Made by a program: the position numbers and the translations under genes
Assembly: GCA_015485125.1 (NCBI GenBank)
Contig: WFUE01000115.1
Coordinates: 1 to 50,217 of the forward strand
DNA: 50,217 bases
Origin: Lysobacterales bacterium
GTDB lineage: Bacteria > Pseudomonadota > Gammaproteobacteria > Xanthomonadales > S139-57
Direction of reading: 5' to 3'
The notes under the pieces: model-generated
Seen by the model: the letters and a program-made list of their open reading frames with translations, nothing else
Told to the model about the DNA's origin: nothing
The model's database searches: none
Part shown: piece after piece, positions 30,066 to 38,437 of the stretch
Layout of the letters: each line of letters opens with the position of its first letter
Numbering within the stretch: position 1 is the stretch's first letter

Positions 30066-32426
30066 ATGCCCCGCCTCAAACGCATCGTTCGAAACTTGTT
30101 CCTGCTCGGCATCCTCGCTGCCGTACTGGGCGCCGTGGCGCTGGGTGTGCTCTATCAACTGATCAGCCCCAAGTTGCCCACCGCCGATCAAATGCGCAAT
30201 GTGCAGTTCCAGATTCCACTGCGGGTCTATAGCGCTGACGGCAAGCTGATCAGTGTCTTCGGAGAAAAACGCCGCATCCCCGTCAAGCTGGAAGCCATTC
30301 CCCGCAACTTGCAGCTGGCCTTCATTGCCGGTGAGGATGACCGCTTCTACCAGCATCCCGGCGTGGACTACGAAGGCATCCTGCGGGCCGTCTGGTACCT
30401 GATTCGCACCGGCCACAAGGGCCCTGGCGGCAGCACCATCACCATGCAGCTGGCACGCAATTTCTTTCTCAGCTTCGAGCAGACCTACAGCCGCAAGCTG
30501 ACCGAAATTTTTCTGGCGCTGAAGATGGAGCATTACTTCAGCAAGGACGAGATTCTCGAACTCTATCTGAACAAGATCTACCTGGGTCACCGCGCCTACG
30601 GCGTGGCCGCCGCGGCACAGGTCTACTATGGCAAGAAGCTATCCGAGCTGACCCTGCCGGAAATGGCCATGATCGCCGCCCTGCCCAAGGCCCCGTCCCG
30701 CATCAACCCCATCAGCAACCCCAGGCGCGCCCTGCAACGGCGCAATTATGTGCTCGGGCGCATGCACGAACTGGGCTTCATCGATGAAAACCAGTGGAAG
30801 ACCGCTGTGCAAACCCCGGACCGGGCCTATTCTCACGGGCCGGTGGTCGAGTTTGAAGCGCCCTATGTGGCGGAAATCGCCCGTACCCAGGTGGTCAACA
30901 TCCTGGGCAAGAAGGCATATACCGAAGGCTACAATGTCCATACCACCATGAACAGCCATCTGCAGCGCACCGCCATCCGTGCCTTGCGCAAGGGGCTGGA
31001 AGCCTACGACCGCCGCCATGGCTGGCGTGGCGCCGAAGCACATGTGCAGCTGGGCGAGAACGAAACCCCGGCACAATGGAACGAACACCTCAAGCCCTTC
31101 CGCCCCGTGGCCGGGCTGGTACCGGGACTGGTGGTGGAAATGGACGAAAACCTGGCCCTGATCTACCTGCGCGACGGGCAGACCATTCCGGTCACGCTGG
31201 AACAGGCCGCCTGGGCCCGCCCCTACAAGGACCGCAACCACCGTGGCCCACGACCCAAGAACCTGTATGACATTTTTCAGCCGGGCGACATCATTCGCCT
31301 CAAACGCGGAGAAGATGGCAATTGGCTGCTGGCCCAGATTCCCGAAGTACAGGGCGCGCTGGTGTCGCTGAACCCGGAAAATGGTGCCATCCAGGCACTG
31401 GTGGGTGGCTACGACTTCCACCTGAGCAAATTCAACCGGGTCACCCAGGCCGAGCGGCAACCGGGTTCCAGCTTCAAACCCATCATCTATTCCGCCGCCC
31501 TGGAGAAGGGCTACACCGCCGCCAGCCTGATCAACGATGCACCGGTGGTCTTCGACGACCCGGCACTGGAGAAGGCCTGGCGACCGGAAAACTACTCACA
31601 GAAATTTTTCGGCCCCACGCGTCTGCGCGAGGCCATGACCCATTCCCGCAATCTGGTTTCCATCCGTCTGCTGCGAGCCATCGGCCCCGCCTACGCCGCC
31701 AGTTACGCGCGCCGTTTCGGCTTCGAACCGGACAAGCTGCCCCATGACCTCTCGCTGGCACTGGGTTCCGCCTCGGTGCCACCCCTGAGCATGGCCCGTG
31801 CCTATGCCACCCTGGCCAACGGCGGCTACCTTATCGACCCCTATCTGGTCGATCGCATCGAAAATGCCGATGGCGAAACCCTGTACCGCAGCCCACGGGT
31901 GATTGCCTGCCGCGGCGATTGCAGCGGGCAGACCGATCCTCGTGCCGAGCAGACACTGGACCCGGCCAATGCCTACATCATCACCAGCATCATGCAGGAT
32001 GTCATCCGCCGGGGTACCGGCAAGAAAGCCCGCCAGCTGGGTCGTGCCGATCTCGCGGGCAAGACCGGCACCACCAATGACCAGCGGGATGCCTGGTTCT
32101 CCGGTTTCAACCCGAAAGTGGTCACCACCACCTGGGTGGGCTTCGACCAGCTTAGCCCGCTGGGCCGGGGGGAAGTGGGCGGCCGCGCCGCTCTGCCCAT
32201 CTGGATCGACTACATGCGCGAGGCGTTGAAGACCATTCCGGAAACCCCGTTCCAGCGCCCGGACGAGCTGATTTCCATCCGTATCAACCGCAAGACCGGG
32301 CAACCCACCAGCGCGGATGACCCCGACAGCATGATCGAGATCTTCCGGCCGCAATATGCCCCCAAGGTGGACGATCCCAAGCAGGAAAACCCCAACACCG
32401 ACCAGAAAGACTACGACATTTTCTGA
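30066..32426 (+). CDS. mrcA: Penicillin-binding protein 1A (bifunctional glycosyltransferase/transpeptidase)
   Basis: Starts MPRLKRIVRNLFLL, inside ORF 29958..32426. The GT51 motif is EDDRFYQHPGVD. The transpeptidase motifs are SSFKP and KTGTTND. Confidence 0.92.
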   Translation: MPRLKRIVRNLFLLGILAAVLGAVALGVLYQLISPKLPTADQMRNVQFQIPLRVYSADGKLISVFGEKRRIPVKLEAIPRNLQLAFIAGEDDRFYQHPGVDYEGILRAVWYLIRTGHKGPGGSTITMQLARNFFLSFEQTYSRKLTEIFLALKMEHYFSKDEILELYLNKIYLGHRAYGVAAAAQVYYGKKLSELTLPEMAMIAALPKAPSRINPISNPRRALQRRNYVLGRMHELGFIDENQWKTAVQTPDRAYSHGPVVEFEAPYVAEIARTQVVNILGKKAYTEGYNVHTTMNSHLQRTAIRALRKGLEAYDRRHGWRGAEAHVQLGENETPAQWNEHLKPFRPVAGLVPGLVVEMDENLALIYLRDGQTIPVTLEQAAWARPYKDRNHRGPRPKNLYDIFQPGDIIRLKRGEDGNWLLAQIPEVQGALVSLNPENGAIQALVGGYDFHLSKFNRVTQAERQPGSSFKPIIYSAALEKGYTAASLINDAPVVFDDPALEKAWRPENYSQKFFGPTRLREAMTHSRNLVSIRLLRAIGPAYAASYARRFGFEPDKLPHDLSLALGSASVPPLSMARAYATLANGGYLIDPYLVDRIENADGETLYRSPRVIACRGDCSGQTDPRAEQTLDPANAYIITSIMQDVIRRGTGKKARQLGRADLAGKTGTTNDQRDAWFSGFNPKVVTTTWVGFDQLSPLGRGEVGGRAALPIWIDYMREALKTIPETPFQRPDELISIRINRKTGQPTSADDPDSMIEIFRPQYAPKVDDPKQENPNTDQKDYDIF

Positions 32427-32433
32427 AGATGCG

Positions 32434-33054
32434 ATGAAACCAACCAAGCCCGCATCCACCCTGAAGCAACAGCTGGCCGCGGAAGCCGCACGCCTGCTTT
32501 GCAACGGAGACACCCATGACCTGCAACAGGCCAAGCTCAAGGCCGCGGCCCGGCTCTGCCCCGGCCTGCGCGCGCCCATGCCGGACAACCGCATGGTGGA
32601 ACAGGAAATGCGGCGCTATCGCCAGTTTTTTGCCGGAAAACATCACCAGCAGACCCGTCTTGCACTGATGCGACAGGCCCGCGAAGCCATGGTTTTTCTG
32701 GCTGTTTTCCAGCCACGGCTGATGGGCAGCATCGTACAGGATACCGCCACCCCGGACAGCAGCATCGACCTGCTCTGCCACACCGAAATCCCCGGCGAAG
32801 TCGGTGCATTTCTGGATCAGAATCAGATCGACTATCAATCCGACAGCCGTCTGCTGGGCTTCAGCAATGACGAGGATTGCCTGCTGCCCACCTACCGCTT
32901 TCTGGCAGGCGAACATCCCGTGCAGATCACGGAAATACCGGCCAATTTGCAGCACCACCGTATTGTCAGCGGCAACCTGCGTCAGCGGGTGGAAACCTGG
33001 AATCGCCACCGGCTGGAAGAAGCCCTGGCGAAAGCCGAACAGTCTCCAGCCTGA
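32434..33054 (+). CDS. Conserved hypothetical protein with a minimal nucleotidyltransferase-fold motif
   Basis: 206 aa starting MKPTKPAS, inside ORF 32356..33054. RLMGSIVQDTATPDSSIDLL fits the GS-x(9-11)-[DS]-x-D Pol-beta-type NTase pattern. Confidence 0.45.
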   Translation: MKPTKPASTLKQQLAAEAARLLCNGDTHDLQQAKLKAAARLCPGLRAPMPDNRMVEQEMRRYRQFFAGKHHQQTRLALMRQAREAMVFLAVFQPRLMGSIVQDTATPDSSIDLLCHTEIPGEVGAFLDQNQIDYQSDSRLLGFSNDEDCLLPTYRFLAGEHPVQITEIPANLQHHRIVSGNLRQRVETWNRHRLEEALAKAEQSPA

Positions 33055-34555: not shown

Positions 34556-34798
34556 TCAGCGGCTGTAGCGCTGGCGGAACTTGTCCACCCGGCCGCCGGA
34601 GTCGACGATCTTGTGCTTGCCGGTGTAGAACGGGTGGGACTTGCTGGAAATTTCCACCTTCACCAGCGGGTATTCGTTGCCGTCTTCCCAGGTGATGGTT
34701 TCCTTGGTCTTGATGGTGGAGCGGGTCAAGATCTTGAAATCGCTCGAAATGTCCTGAAACACCACTTCGCGGTATTCCGGATGAATGTCTGGCTTCAT
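34556..34798 (-). CDS. rpmE2: 50S ribosomal protein L31, type B (Cys-less, zinc-independent paralogue)
   Basis: 80 aa: [28 protein letters not shown]...[26 protein letters not shown]. It contains no cysteine at all. It lies inside the longer ORF 34556..35101. Confidence 0.9.
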
Positions 34799-34941: not shown

Positions 34942-34960
34942 GAGAATCATTAGCATTCTC
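34942..34960. promoter_or_regulatory. Fur-family-type (Fur/Zur-like) 19-bp palindromic operator candidate
   Basis: GAGAATCATTAGCATTCTC has 6-bp perfect inverted arms, GAGAAT and ATTCTC. By my count it matches the classical Fur box GATAATGATAATCATTATC at 13 of 19 positions. It ends 28 nt before the MoxR ATG and overlaps a possible -10 (TAGCAT) paired with TTGCCC as -35. Confidence 0.45.
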
Positions 34961-34988: not shown

Positions 34989-36029
34989 ATGCGTCCCGCA
35001 CAACTGCTGAAGATTCTGGACAACGAGTTTACCGGCACCCGCAAGGGCTGGCATACCCCGGTAATGCTCTGGGGCCCGCCGGGTGTGGGCAAGTCGGACA
35101 TGATCCACCAGGTCGGCCAGCGTCATCAGGTGCCGGTCATCGACATTCGCCTGTCACAGATGGAACCTTCCGACCTGCGTGGCATTCCCTTTCGGGTGGA
35201 AGACCGGGTGGAATGGGCCATTCCCGCCCTGCTGCCCGATGCACAGCGCCACGGGCCGGCGGGCATCCTCTTTCTGGACGAGATCACCTCGGCGCCGCCC
35301 AGCGTCTCCGCCGCCGCCTACCAGCTCATCCTCGACCGGCGGCTGGGCGAGTATCAGGTCCCGGAAGGCTGGGCCATTTTCGCCGCCGGCAACCGCCAGG
35401 GCGACCGGGGCGTGACCTACACCATGCCCGCGCCGCTGGCCAACCGTTTCTCCCACTACGAAGTGGATGTCAACCTGGACGACTGGGTGGCCTGGGCCTA
35501 CGCCAACGACATCGACGACCGGGTCATCGGCTTCCTGCGCTTTCGCCCCGAACGGCTGTTCGACTTCGACCCGGCACACAACCCGGTGGCCTTTCCCTCG
35601 CCCCGCTCCTGGGCCTTCGCCCACCGTGCGTTGCAAAAGTTCGCTGATCAGCCGGACATTCTCGCCGGCGCCCTGCAAGCCTGCGTGGGCACATCCGCCG
35701 GCATGGAACTGAAGACCTATGTGGACAGCCTGGACCAGATGCCCGATCTGGATGCCATCCTTCGTGGCGAGAGCCGGGAAATGCCGAAATCACTGGATTT
35801 GCAATATGCCGTGGCCGCCGCACTGGTGGGCCGGGCCATCAAGGCACTTCAGCAGGAAGGCTGGCAGGAAGCCGTGGGCCACATTCTCGACTACGCCCGC
35901 CGTTTCAAGGCCCGGGAGATGGGCGTGATGCTGGTGGCCGATCTGCACCGGGCCATTGGCGAAAACCTGTTCCAGGTACCCCAGTTCGACAACTGGGCCA
36001 ATGACATGGCCGACATCCTGCTGAACTGA
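34989..36029 (+). CDS. MoxR-like AAA+ ATPase (AAA_5 / CobS-like type)
   Basis: 346 aa. Walker A is WGPPGVGKS and Walker B is GILFLDEIT. It has one AAA+ module plus a helical lid. It is the first gene of a tightly packed three-gene operon. Confidence 0.85.
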
Positions 36030-36030
36030 A

Positions 36031-37323
36031 ATGGCTGATCTGGAACGGGTGGAACAGAAGCTCAGCGCGGCTCGTACCCGCCTGATTCTCGACCGGCCCT
36101 TTCTGGGCGCGCTGGTGCTGCGCCTGCCGCTGGTGGCCGCCGACCCCAAGTGGTGCCCCACCACCGGCACGGACGCCCGCAAGTTCTACTACAACCCGGA
36201 TTACATCTGGCAGCTGAACGACTCCGAGCTGCAATTCGTGCTCGCTCACGAGGCCCTGCACTGCGGCCTGCTGCACTTCGCCCGCCGCAATGGCCGCACC
36301 CAGCACCTGTGGGACATCGCCTGCGACTACGCCGTCAACCCGCTGCTGATCAACGAAGGCCTGCAAGCCCCGCCCAACGCGCCCTGGCTGCGGGAATACG
36401 AAAACATGACCGCCGAGGAAATCTACCCTCTGCTCGGTGACAACGAAAACGACATGGAGACCATGGACAAGCACCTCTACGATCAGGGCGAAGGGGGGCA
36501 GAAAGGGAATGACAGCAAGGGCGAAGGCGAATCCGACCAGGAAAAACAGGGCCGGGGCAAGTCACCGGAAGAAGGTGGCGAGCAGGGGCAAAAACCCGAA
36601 GCGGACAACCAGAGCGATGCCGAGGGCCGGGCCAACCCGCGCGAGGCCGAGGGCGGGCTGGCTGCCGAACCCAGACCACTTTCCGAACGGGAAAAGCAGG
36701 ATCTGGCCGAACAATGGCAACAGCGACTGGCCGGCGCGGCCCAGCAGGCCATTCAGGCCGGCAAACTGGGAGAGAACTGGGTACGGCTGGTGGACCACTT
36801 GCTGGAGCCGCAACTGCCCTGGCAGGCACTGCTGGCCCGCTACATGACCGCCACTGCCCGCGACGACTACAGCTGGCAGCGGCCCAATACCCGCCGCGAG
36901 GGGCCGGCCATCTTTCCCAGCCTGCGCAACGGCCAGGTGGATGTCACCGTGGCCATCGACGTCTCCGGCTCCGTTTCCGACAGCGAGCTACAGGCCTTTC
37001 TCGGCGAAATCAACGCCATCAAGAGCCAGATCAATGCGCGCATTACCCTGCTGGCCTGTGACGCAAAACTCAGCGAGGGCGCGCCCTGGACCTTCGAGCC
37101 CTGGGAAGAATGCCGCCTGCCGGAGAAACTCAAGGGCGGCGGCGGCACGGATTTTCGCCCGGTTTTCCACTGGCTGGAACAACAGGATCAGGCACCGGAT
37201 CTGCTGGTGTGGTTTACCGACGCGCAGGGGCGATTTCCGGAGCAGGAACCCCATTGTCCGGTATTATGGCTGGTGAAGGGGCGCGCGCCGGTGCCCTTTG
37301 GTCAACGCATCCAACTGAACTGA
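36031..37323 (+). CDS. HExxH putative metallopeptidase domain fused to a VWA domain (DUF2201-type)
   Basis: 430 aa. HEALH is at nt 36247-36261. An acidic/Gly-rich linker of about 80 aa follows. The VWA domain has a MIDAS motif, DVSGS, at nt 36958-36972, and a downstream WFTDAQG. It starts 1 nt after the MoxR stop. Confidence 0.8.
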   Translation: MADLERVEQKLSAARTRLILDRPFLGALVLRLPLVAADPKWCPTTGTDARKFYYNPDYIWQLNDSELQFVLAHEALHCGLLHFARRNGRTQHLWDIACDYAVNPLLINEGLQAPPNAPWLREYENMTAEEIYPLLGDNENDMETMDKHLYDQGEGGQKGNDSKGEGESDQEKQGRGKSPEEGGEQGQKPEADNQSDAEGRANPREAEGGLAAEPRPLSEREKQDLAEQWQQRLAGAAQQAIQAGKLGENWVRLVDHLLEPQLPWQALLARYMTATARDDYSWQRPNTRREGPAIFPSLRNGQVDVTVAIDVSGSVSDSELQAFLGEINAIKSQINARITLLACDAKLSEGAPWTFEPWEECRLPEKLKGGGGTDFRPVFHWLEQQDQAPDLLVWFTDAQGRFPEQEPHCPVLWLVKGRAPVPFGQRIQLN

Positions 37324-37330
37324 GGTCATC

Positions 37331-38437
37331 ATGGAACTGGCATCCCAGGACACCCTGCGGCTGAATGTCCTGCTACGGCAGAACCTGCAGGCCCTGCGCA
37401 TCGACGAATCACGCATGCAGGTCATCGGCCTGACCGATGACGGTGAAAAGCGTGTGCAGCTCAATCCCAACTGCCAGGACGAAACCTATCTCAAACTGGT
37501 GCGCCAGCTGATCTCCTCCCATGTACTGGGCTCGCCCGGCGGCTATCCGGTCTATATCAAGCGCTGGACCCGCATGGGCCAGGCCCGCAGCACCCAGATT
37601 GACAAACTGCTGCTGCTGGGGGAGCCGGAGGCGGTCACCGCCGCCGTTTACACACCGGAGATCTCCCCTGAACTGGCCCGCCGGGCCTGGTGGTGCAGCC
37701 AGTCATCGGAAAACGCCCGCGAACTACTGCGCCGGCCGGCCATCGTTACCGATCCGCTGGGGCGGGAACTGGCCGCCCACCTGCTGGAATTCCTGCCCTT
37801 CGAAACCGAGGCACGGGATGTGATGAACACCGTAGCCCTGATTCTGCAGCCGGGCCTGCTGGACAAGTCACAACAGGAAAAACTGTGGAAGCAGGGTCAA
37901 CGCAAAAATGCCTATCGGGCCGGCTTTCTGCTGGCCGGGGCGGAAGTGCTGCCCGAACGCCGTCCGGCCCGGACACTGGAAGAGGAAGAACAGCAACGGC
38001 TGGAAGCGCTGGCCGGGCAAGGCAACCTGGCTGCCCGCCGTCTCCAGCGCGCCTTCAGCGAGGACGGGCAGACCTTTCTCGCCGAATTCGACCGTACCTG
38101 CGAGAAACTGGCGGATCAGGATGTGACCATCGCCCTGTTCAACCGGCTGGGACAGTTTCTGCAACCACGCATTGCTGCTCCGGGCCACCGTCACTGGGAC
38201 GCTCTGGAGGCCTGTTGCAATGAAAGCGATGAGGATCGGGAACATCTGCTGCGGGCCCTGCCGGAACAAGCAGCCTCCATCGCCGCTTGCGAACGGCTGG
38301 CCCAGGTCAACGAGAACCTGCTGGACCCCATCTTTGGCGGCTCGGATGCGCTGGGCTCGGTGATGCGCAAGCAACTGAAACCGGTGATGGAACCCTTGCG
38401 TGACTGCCTGAAAACCCTGTTTAAACCTGCCGGCTGA
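37331..38437 (+). CDS. Hypothetical alpha-helical protein, third gene of the MoxR-VWA operon
   Basis: 368-aa ORF starting 7 nt after the VWA gene stop. Codon usage and GC match its neighbours. I see no signal peptide, TM helix or recognisable catalytic motif. Confidence 0.7.
   Translation: MELASQDTLRLNVLLRQNLQALRIDESRMQVIGLTDDGEKRVQLNPNCQDETYLKLVRQLISSHVLGSPGGYPVYIKRWTRMGQARSTQIDKLLLLGEPEAVTAAVYTPEISPELARRAWWCSQSSENARELLRRPAIVTDPLGRELAAHLLEFLPFETEARDVMNTVALILQPGLLDKSQQEKLWKQGQRKNAYRAGFLLAGAEVLPERRPARTLEEEEQQRLEALAGQGNLAARRLQRAFSEDGQTFLAEFDRTCEKLADQDVTIALFNRLGQFLQPRIAAPGHRHWDALEACCNESDEDREHLLRALPEQAASIAACERLAQVNENLLDPIFGGSDALGSVMRKQLKPVMEPLRDCLKTLFKPAG

Follow-up and report, generated by a model that had tools for sequence, protein, structure and literature searches.

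The NorQ/NorD and CbbQ/CbbO systems each combine a single-module MoxR-type AAA+ ATPase with an adjacent von Willebrand factor A (VWA) protein that bears an intact metal ion-dependent adhesion site (MIDAS). In these systems, a finger of the VWA protein enters the AAA+ pore, the linker is stretched by ATP-driven rotation, and the MIDAS/linker region engages the client at acidic residues (PMC9976466, PMC13036017). A further pair of this general type has been described computationally by Iyer et al. in jumbo phages as a "MoxR-vWA pair with an N-terminal metallopeptidase", and a function in virion assembly and processing was proposed for it (PMC7824862). In this work we analyze a compact operon of a Lysobacterales bacterium (NCBI GenBank assembly GCA_015485125.1, contig WFUE01000115.1, positions 1 to 50,217; this entire stretch of 50,217 nucleotides is referred to as the window) in which a pair of the latter type is directly followed by an orthologue of dsrS, a gene of the dsr sulfur-oxidation operon. 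The initial annotation of this locus, made from the sequence alone, had stated that such DUF2201-type pairs lack an experimentally defined function, and our searches returned none, the jumbo phage account being the only description found. The MoxR/VWA-metallopeptidase pair is hence already known, in computational work only; what is new here is the existence of a conserved gammaproteobacterial chromosomal orthogroup of the pair and its association with DsrS.

Ever since the sequencing of the Allochromatium vinosum operon, DsrS has counted among the canonical dsr genes. Grimm et al. reportedly observed, in 2011, that an A. vinosum dsrS deletion oxidizes stored sulfur more slowly, and DsrS is said by the same authors to affect dsr expression post-transcriptionally. 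In the published record the role of DsrS is "still not resolved" and its gene is known to have its own promoter (PMC3368242); the protein has no KEGG orthology number, and its gene occupies the last position of the dsrABEFHCMKLJOPNRS operon (PMC10892978), as Alvin_1265 in A. vinosum. In Sulfurifustis, Sulfuricaulis and Thioalkalivibrio, dsrS lies outside the dsr cluster (PMC5024460, PMC5328954), and gene SVA_2921 of Sulfurifustis variabilis has been named dsrS (PMC5024460). Many chemolithotrophic sulfur oxidizers keep dsrS apart from the dsr cluster, and the literature searched contained neither an account of its neighbors nor any paper joining dsrS with MoxR, VWA or AAA, or A. vinosum with MoxR.

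The operon consists of three genes on the forward strand, whose products and main sequence features are as follows.

34989-36029, + strand: gene 1, MoxR-class AAA+ ATPase with a single AAA_5 module and a helical lid (346 amino acids)
35073-35096, + strand: Walker A motif of gene 1, G29PPGVGKS36
35265-35282, + strand: Walker B motif of gene 1, LFLD97E98
36031-37323, + strand: gene 2, VWA protein with an N-terminal zinc-peptidase-like domain (430 amino acids)
36031-36480, + strand: peptidase-like domain of gene 2 (residues 1-150), with HEALH at 36247-36261
36481-36651, + strand: acidic disordered linker of gene 2 (residues 151-207)
between the linker and the next segment, + strand: helical region of gene 2
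36859-36927, + strand: conserved, predicted disordered segment of gene 2 (residues 277-299), just ahead of the VWA domain
36937-37320, + strand: VWA domain of gene 2 (residues 303-430), with the MIDAS motif DVSGS at 36958-36972
37306-37320, + strand: invariant C-terminal R-x-Q-L-N of gene 2 (residues 426-430)
37331-38437, + strand: gene 3, DsrS orthologue (368 amino acids)

Read off the sequence, the intergenic spacing amounts to 1 nt between genes 1 and 2 and 7 nt between genes 2 and 3, confirming the compact three-gene operon that had been proposed. A ribosome-binding site (GAGG) precedes the ATG of gene 3, and the start codons of genes 1, 2 and 3 match the N-termini of their respective orthologues. 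We are highly confident of the identity of the three parts, and we consider it reasonably probable, from the comparative sequence data, that the pair and DsrS are truly linked in function. Taking these elements together, and by analogy with described systems, we propose that the operon encodes a remodeling machine of the NorQD/CbbQO kind, built on a MoxR-type AAA+ ATPase, with DsrS as its adaptor or client and a siroheme sulfite-reductase-type enzyme as its target; we give this overall reading an even chance of being correct.

Gene 1 matches the Pfam profiles AAA_5 (38 bits, cut-off 22) and AAA (36 bits, cut-off 21.2). An alignment of 10 sequences, phage N4 gp24 and the pSYSA MoxR protein among them, shows no variation in the Walker A and Walker B motifs of gene 1, in the sensor-1 residue N135 or in the two arginines R153 and R206, so profile and alignment both bear out the assignment to AAA_5 MoxR ATPases with intact Walker motifs made in the initial annotation. 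The product is accordingly predicted to be a MoxR-class AAA+ ATPase with every motif needed for catalysis. It shares 63-74% identity with the orthologues found upstream of DsrS elsewhere and 97% with that of the closest metagenome-assembled genome (MAG). A sequence search of the PDB yielded weak matches to the AAA modules of midasin and to CbbQ (E=0.0021 for the latter). Gene 1 adjoins the gene of its VWA partner, and this pairing is kept in every orthologous locus for which sequence is available.

Gene 2 carries the two DUF2201 domains in the expected order, with DUF2201_N (E=4.9e-46, 158 bits, cut-off 23.2) followed by the VWA-like DUF2201 (E=2.4e-24, 86 bits, cut-off 26.4), in agreement with the combination of an HEALH motif and a DxSGS-bearing VWA domain recognized earlier. 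In an alignment of 33 orthologues, the zinc site HEALHxxxxH retains E74, H77 and H82 in all sequences and H73 in 31, the other two reading SREALH, with the first histidine gone and all other features retained. The MIDAS residues D310-x-S312-G-S314, together with T373 (in GGGGT) and D397 (in FTDA), are invariant, and hence the conservation of HExxH and MIDAS, which had been singled out for checking, is borne out by the orthologues except for H73 in those two sequences. The AlphaFold2 model of gene 2 has a predicted local distance difference test score (pLDDT) of 74.6, with residues 151-207 and approximately 277-299 predicted to be disordered. The first of these regions is acidic, hypervariable, widely different in length among orthologues and modeled at a pLDDT of 29-39, as expected from the acidic, disordered-looking linker reported before. 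In the second, residues R277, D279, R284, P285, R288, R289 and P296 are invariant, and this segment and the C-terminal R-x-Q-L-N are candidate contacts to the ATPase's pore or its post-sensor-1 loop. Structural comparison with Foldseek relates the C-terminus to integrin I/VWA domains (probability 1.0) and about 80 N-terminal residues to the minimal zinc peptidase selecase MJ1213 (probability 0.91-0.95, 22-25% identity); a phmmer comparison of gene 2 with MJ1213 is weak (E=0.13). Sequence and model thus point to a selecase-like HExxH zinc-peptidase fold joined by a disordered linker to a MIDAS-bearing VWA domain. The fold and the HExxH helix of selecase and the minigluzincins (MJ1213, PDB 4QHF) match the N-terminal domain of gene 2, but selecase is a stand-alone peptidase of 110 residues, whereas the model of gene 2 places the fold within a domain of about 150 residues fused to linker and VWA, as a putative peptidase.

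These features also define the relationship to NorQD and CbbQO. As in those systems, a single-module MoxR ATPase is encoded next to a VWA protein with an intact MIDAS, and gene 2 has a C-terminal tail that is invariant, a long and flexible linker and, ahead of the VWA domain, a flexible segment that is conserved; a long linker and a conserved C-terminal tail have both been shown to matter in NorQD. The sequences, however, are only distantly similar, the N-terminal domain of gene 2 has a zinc-peptidase fold instead of the NorD/CbbO N-terminal domain, no nor or cbb client gene is adjacent, and the operon encodes a third soluble protein, DsrS. The likeness is therefore one of working in a similar manner, not of membership. 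Membership in NorQD/CbbQO was considered and rejected, given that the CbbQ match is weak, no NCBIfam or Pfam match to NorD or CbbO was obtained, and there are no nor or cbb genes nearby.

Gene 3 has no match in Pfam, NCBIfam or PADLOC, and only chance matches in a sequence search of the PDB; for genes 1 and 2, too, NCBIfam and PADLOC returned nothing above threshold. The description of its product as a mostly helical protein without a recognizable motif therefore holds at the level of Pfam, but the protein does belong to a named family. Homology searches return more than 4000 relatives, most of them 44-50% identical over their full length, and several of these are labeled "sulfur reduction protein DsrS" or "DsrS" by NCBI/UniRef. 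With tblastn, gene 3 aligns over residues 1-355 or more, at 37-48% identity, to the gene located after dsrN-dsrR in the dsr operons of Chromatiaceae and Sedimenticola (28 loci). Because its homologues directly follow dsrN-dsrR, the canonical 3' end of dsrABEFHCMKLJOPNRS, gene 3 is best identified by sequence as a full-length DsrS orthologue. It shares the conserved core of the family with A. vinosum DsrS, but it ends a MoxR/VWA operon set among housekeeping genes and not a dsr operon. Through DsrS the trio maps in part to a characterized pathway, Dsr sulfur oxidation, an outcome against which the initial annotation had asked to be checked; the mapping extends only as far as the protein whose own role in that pathway is the one quoted above.

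A search with a DsrS family profile recovered 541 representatives among 1.84 billion proteins, all of them stand-alone proteins of about 345-395 amino acids. Conserved motifs of the family include RW-x-RMG, LGEPEA, WW and E-x-FLPFE. The AlphaFold2 model of gene 3 (pLDDT 93.1) consists of an N-terminal three-stranded sheet and an all-alpha body, and since Foldseek returned no match at E<0.001, nor any below E=0.1, in the PDB or BFVD, the fold provides no functional clue. The loop R78-W-T-R-M-G-Q-x-R86 is highly conserved and modeled at lower confidence. This loop could be a recognition or cleavage site, and it bears on a different account of the operon, regulated proteolysis, in which the peptidase of gene 2 would act on a substrate unfolded or presented by the ATPase, with DsrS either being cleaved or selecting the substrate. 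The amounts of Dsr or other proteins would in this way be set post-transcriptionally. Such an account would fit the conservation of HExxH and of the third histidine on a selecase-like fold, as well as the post-transcriptional role in dsr expression reported for DsrS; peptidolytic processing has also been proposed by Iyer et al. for the phage pair (PMC7824862). The SREALH variants in 2 of 33 orthologues argue that peptidase activity is not always essential, there is no evident cleavage site or propeptide, and we regard regulated proteolysis as unlikely to be the main function. It is compatible with a remodeling machine, and the two are not mutually exclusive.

The association of the pair with DsrS was assessed across species-representative genomes. 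A scan seeded with DsrS produced 73 loci, whose flanking open reading frames (ORFs) were clustered, and the cluster representatives were scanned with Pfam (L-numbers denote the compared loci). Nearly all of these loci carry gammaproteobacterial labels, and many fall in sulfur-oxidizer groups (Sedimenticola, Thiogranum, Chromatiaceae, Thiosymbion, Acidiferrobacteraceae, Thiohalobacter and Leucothrix-type lineages). Genes 1 and 2 are found upstream of DsrS, in the same order, in 26 of the 73, where the gene 2 orthologues are 51-60% identical to gene 2. The gap between genes 2 and 3 ranges from 4 to about 340 nt in 24 of these loci, with spacings of 4-70 nt in 14 of the 26, and reaches 1.46 kb in L065 and about 7 kb in L021. 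Conversely, when loci were seeded with gene 2, DsrS was located no more than 1.5 kb downstream in 8 of 11 evaluable cases; a metagenome scan with gene 2 yielded only 7 loci. The synteny of gene 3 with the pair beyond this genome, a further point put forward for checking, is thus frequent but not obligatory. The arrangement is also present in the complete genome of Sulfurifustis variabilis, in which an AAA_5 gene precedes the gene 2 orthologue SVA_2920 (60% identity) and dsrS (SVA_2921) comes next. Across the sampled gammaproteobacterial lineages, most of them named as sulfur-oxidizer taxa, the chromosomal pair orthogroup is 55-74% identical.

The trio stays together in at least four unrelated chromosomal contexts. 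In the window, in L001 (the nearest MAG, labeled Lysobacterales), in L084 and in L083, it lies between citrate synthase (GltA)-L31 and Prc-LipA-LipB, and DsrS identity to the window copy falls to 82% in L084 and 57% in L083. Many MAGs have it between a Sel1-repeat gene and CysG; in Acidiferrobacterales (L081, L089) it is flanked by GCS2/AstE, and in Kaarinaea (L092, L093) by cytochrome and phosphonate-binding genes. In a rough neighbor-joining tree of DsrS, the dsr-operon copies form one clade and the pair-linked copies fall on several separate branches, one of which is the deepest when the tree is rooted at its midpoint.

The Sel1 context has features of its own. A 145-residue Sel1-repeat gene precedes gene 1 in L004, L007, L008, L010, L015, L020, L022, L027, L028, L031 and L055, its stop codon overlapping the gene 1 ATG (TAATG or TGATG) to make a four-gene operon, and in loci without the pair the Sel1 gene directly precedes DsrS.

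The wider neighborhoods of DsrS offer information on its possible target. In 28 of the 73 loci, the genes immediately before dsrS encode a DsrN-like amidase and an IscA protein resembling DsrR, and in several of these dsrN-dsrR-dsrS loci dsrL, dsrJ, dsrO and dsrP were identified by eye further upstream. CysG is encoded within 8 kb of DsrS in 32 of the 73, and DsrC and DUF6866 proteins are recurrent neighbors. The dsrN gene encodes a siroheme amidase and cysG encodes siroheme synthase. DsrS is thus repeatedly tied to siroheme genes (dsrN, cysG), to dsrC and to the dsr operon. Because of these repeated ties, the target of the proposed machine would probably be a siroheme-[4Fe-4S] sulfite-reductase-type enzyme.

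Two further elements recur in these neighborhoods. A DUF6866 gene is found a few kb upstream of DsrS in L009, L011, L018, L038, L068, L077, L082 and L091, accompanied by a DsrC/TusE-like gene in all of them but L091, and a 2OG-Fe(II) oxygenase gene lies beside DUF6866 in L082 and L091; the DUF6866/DsrC grouping is seen both in the presence and in the absence of the pair and suggests that a larger neighborhood of DsrS is conserved. An ORF of about 180 amino acids without a Pfam match directly follows DsrS, often ahead of CysG, in L002, L003, L005, L006, L082 (11863-12399) and L091-L093. The window has no such ORF, and gene 3 there faces a convergent Prc gene.

Upstream of the operon, the region of 190 nt that separates gene 1 from a divergent ribosomal protein gene contains a possible operator and a possible promoter.

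34556-34798, - strand: ribosomal protein L31 gene, Cys-less (type B, zinc-independent), divergent from the operon
34927 (TTGCCC) and 34951 (TAGCAT), separated by 18 nt: possible promoter, inferred from hexamers picked by eye, with the -10 element overlapped by the palindrome below
34942-34960, no strand: Fur-box-like palindrome GAGAATCATTAGCATTCTC, 29-47 nt upstream of the gene 1 ATG

In a scan of the 50-kb window with the Fur consensus, sites matching at 14 or more of 19 positions were obtained only at GAGAATCATTAGCATTCTC (one at 15/19 and two at 14/19), as compared with a mean of 0.2 such sites in shuffled sequence; the palindrome itself occurs once in the window, versus 0 occurrences expected. 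Loci L001, L080 and L084, and also the distant L083, retain its core upstream of gene 1; the other trio lineages do not. Iron-responsive, Fur-like control of the operon is consequently likely in the clade of the window, as judged from this pattern of sequence conservation. Scans with terminator and promoter consensus sequences disclosed nothing convincing for the operon on the + strand. Cys-less L31 paralogues are usually Zur-regulated, and no match to the gammaproteobacterial Zur-box consensus was detected near the L31 gene.

The Fur-like operator and the frequent proximity of CysG to DsrS could also be accommodated by metal insertion into a tetrapyrrole in the manner of class I chelatases, for instance in an alternative or iron-sparing route to siroheme. 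The initial annotation had drawn a chelatase analogy, and the AAA+ subunit, the VWA/MIDAS subunit and the acidic linker do resemble BchI/BchD and CobS/CobT, whose class I complexes are completed by BchH and CobN; related loci, moreover, show an association with siroheme genes. The analogy does not extend further. There is no large CobN/BchH-like subunit, and DsrS, with its 368 residues, absence of a fold match and lack of conserved histidine or cysteine, is unrelated to BchH and CobN in both size and fold. The N-terminal domain of gene 2 has a peptidase fold and is not AAA+-like, and the neighboring CysG proteins already contain the N-terminal, central and dimerization domains of sirohaem synthase, in which the dehydrogenase and ferrochelatase activities reside. 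We therefore deem a chelatase-like function very improbable. Membership in class I chelatases proper was rejected on the grounds that neither the trio nor its flanks encode a tetrapyrrole-binding subunit of more than 1000 amino acids and that the N-terminal domain of the VWA subunit is not AAA+-like.

Relatives of the pair are abundant on mobile elements. Proteins related to gene 2, each encoded next to a MoxR-type ATPase, were collected from 139 plasmid and 690 phage records, including pSYSA of Synechocystis, Burkholderia conjugative plasmids, phage N4 (gp24/gp25) and jumbo phages. These pairs have the same two-gene architecture, with AAA_5 followed by DUF2201_N and DUF2201, but they are mobile and not chromosomal, and their identity to gene 2 is about 25-39%. 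DsrS is absent from the three mobile-pair neighborhoods that were looked at, those of pSYSA, of phage N4 and of a plasmid from Burkholderia gladioli. The abundance of such relatives on phages and plasmids, and the existence of MoxR-vWA ternary systems with effector peptidases (PMC7159879), could suggest that the operon is an anti-phage or conflict system of that ternary type. No PADLOC model was significant, however, the best (E=0.0045) covering the P-loop region of gene 1 and none being returned for genes 2 and 3; the bpMoxR profile scores 16 bits against a cut-off of 27, and the third gene encodes neither a VMAP nor a beta-propeller protein. The location amid housekeeping genes of normal GC content and the metabolic neighbors in other genomes likewise speak against defense, which we consider extremely improbable. 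Identity with a known anti-phage system was rejected on the PADLOC results, the bpMoxR score and the type of third gene.

The mechanism that we envisage for the preferred reading, a remodeling machine with DsrS as adaptor or client, follows from the comparison with NorQD and CbbQO. A hexamer of gene 1 would hold one molecule of gene 2 through the VWA region and the C-terminal tail, and ATP hydrolysis would twist and stretch the gene 2 linker, with the MIDAS gripping an acidic residue of the client. DsrS would be either a client-specific adaptor or the first client, and the end target would be a siroheme-[4Fe-4S] sulfite-reductase-type enzyme (reverse DsrAB, where present), with the machine assisting in its activation, its turnover or the loading of its cofactor. 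Processing or quality control may be a further contribution of the zinc-peptidase domain, and in this lineage the operon would probably be derepressed at low iron by way of the Fur-like operator. Stated in its most specific form, the proposal is that a dedicated MoxR-VWA-zinc-peptidase machine, under Fur control in this lineage, matures, activates or repairs siroheme sulfite reductases (e.g. reverse DsrAB), and that DsrS is its client-specific adaptor or else an obligate first client; we put it forward tentatively. A role in siroheme-enzyme maturation as such, argued here by analogy, is in our estimation possible and still doubtful.

Several observations weigh against this reading. The 50-kb window contains no dsr or siroheme genes. 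The Xanthomonadales/Lysobacterales, in which the closest named relatives of the PutA protein of the window (at about 60% identity) are also found, are not known as a classical Dsr sulfur-oxidizer group. The pair is not next to DsrS in 47 of the 73 DsrS loci, and a Sel1-DsrS-glutaredoxin-CysG variant lacks it from the very same slot. The alignment of DsrS shows no conserved cysteine or histidine, which would have suggested direct cofactor binding, and no residues of functional character are conserved exclusively in pair-linked copies, as a MIDAS-ligand signature might be. DsrS is missing from 3 of the 11 gene 2-seeded pair loci, and in L088 (7312-8868) and L090 (7305-8738) the pair is followed instead by a gene for a signal-peptide-bearing M48-TPR (BepA-like) peptidase. 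Finally, the pair type exists without DsrS on phages and plasmids. In L088, the M48-TPR gene is succeeded by SoxY, SoxZ and a rhodanese gene.

Some of these observations would be expected if the neighborhood were incidental, that is, if the pair were a generic, self-contained module with an unrelated client that merely sits beside dsrS in one gammaproteobacterial group. The pairs of phage N4 (gp24/gp25), pSYSA and Burkholderia plasmids, which lack DsrS, the three orthologous pair loci without it, the lack of pair-specific residues in DsrS and the many DsrS genes without an adjoining pair all fit such a scenario. We nevertheless judge it quite unlikely, given that the trio is kept across at least four unrelated flanks, down to 57% DsrS identity in the clade of the window, that its spacing is tight both here and in more than half of the pair-linked loci, and that pair-linked DsrS copies occupy several separate branches of the tree.

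The remainder of the window is ordinary chromosome with even GC content, in which Rfam and tRNA scans revealed nothing and sox genes are absent. Two of its features deserve individual mention.

345-2081, + strand: BatD-domain protein, at the left edge of the window
32356-33054, + strand: ORF of 232 amino acids without a Pfam match, between PBP1A and citrate synthase

The BatD gene probably closes a MoxR/VWA operon of the Bat type, in which case the genome would encode at least two MoxR/VWA systems. The slot taken by the 232-residue ORF is occupied in L084 by a gene for a protein of 202 amino acids, also without a Pfam match. Nearer the operon, the window encodes PBP1A, citrate synthase and the Cys-less L31 on one side of the trio, and Prc, LipA, LipB, DacA, RlpA, MltB and a GGDEF-EAL regulator on the other. 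Its other genes encode GlcDEF-like proteins, an aa3 oxidase with CtaA, CtaB and SURF1, PutA, a GspA/B-like pair and PilMNOQ.

Overall, our analysis indicates that in many lineages dsrS either closes an operon for a MoxR AAA+ ATPase and a VWA-peptidase or is a neighbor of siroheme synthase. This turns DsrS from an orphan into the subject of a testable hypothesis, in which siroheme enzymes would be matured or processed in a step driven by ATP, and provides the widespread DUF2201-type MoxR pair with its first candidate cellular partner. If the hypothesis is true, DsrS would receive its first mechanism, and MoxR/VWA chaperones would gain a new class of client. Sulfur oxidation would then possess an enzyme-specific AAA+ activase, much as nitric-oxide reductase has NorQD and Rubisco has CbbQO, with a bearing on the understanding and engineering of Dsr-based sulfur oxidation and on the rules by which MoxR/VWA machines choose their clients.

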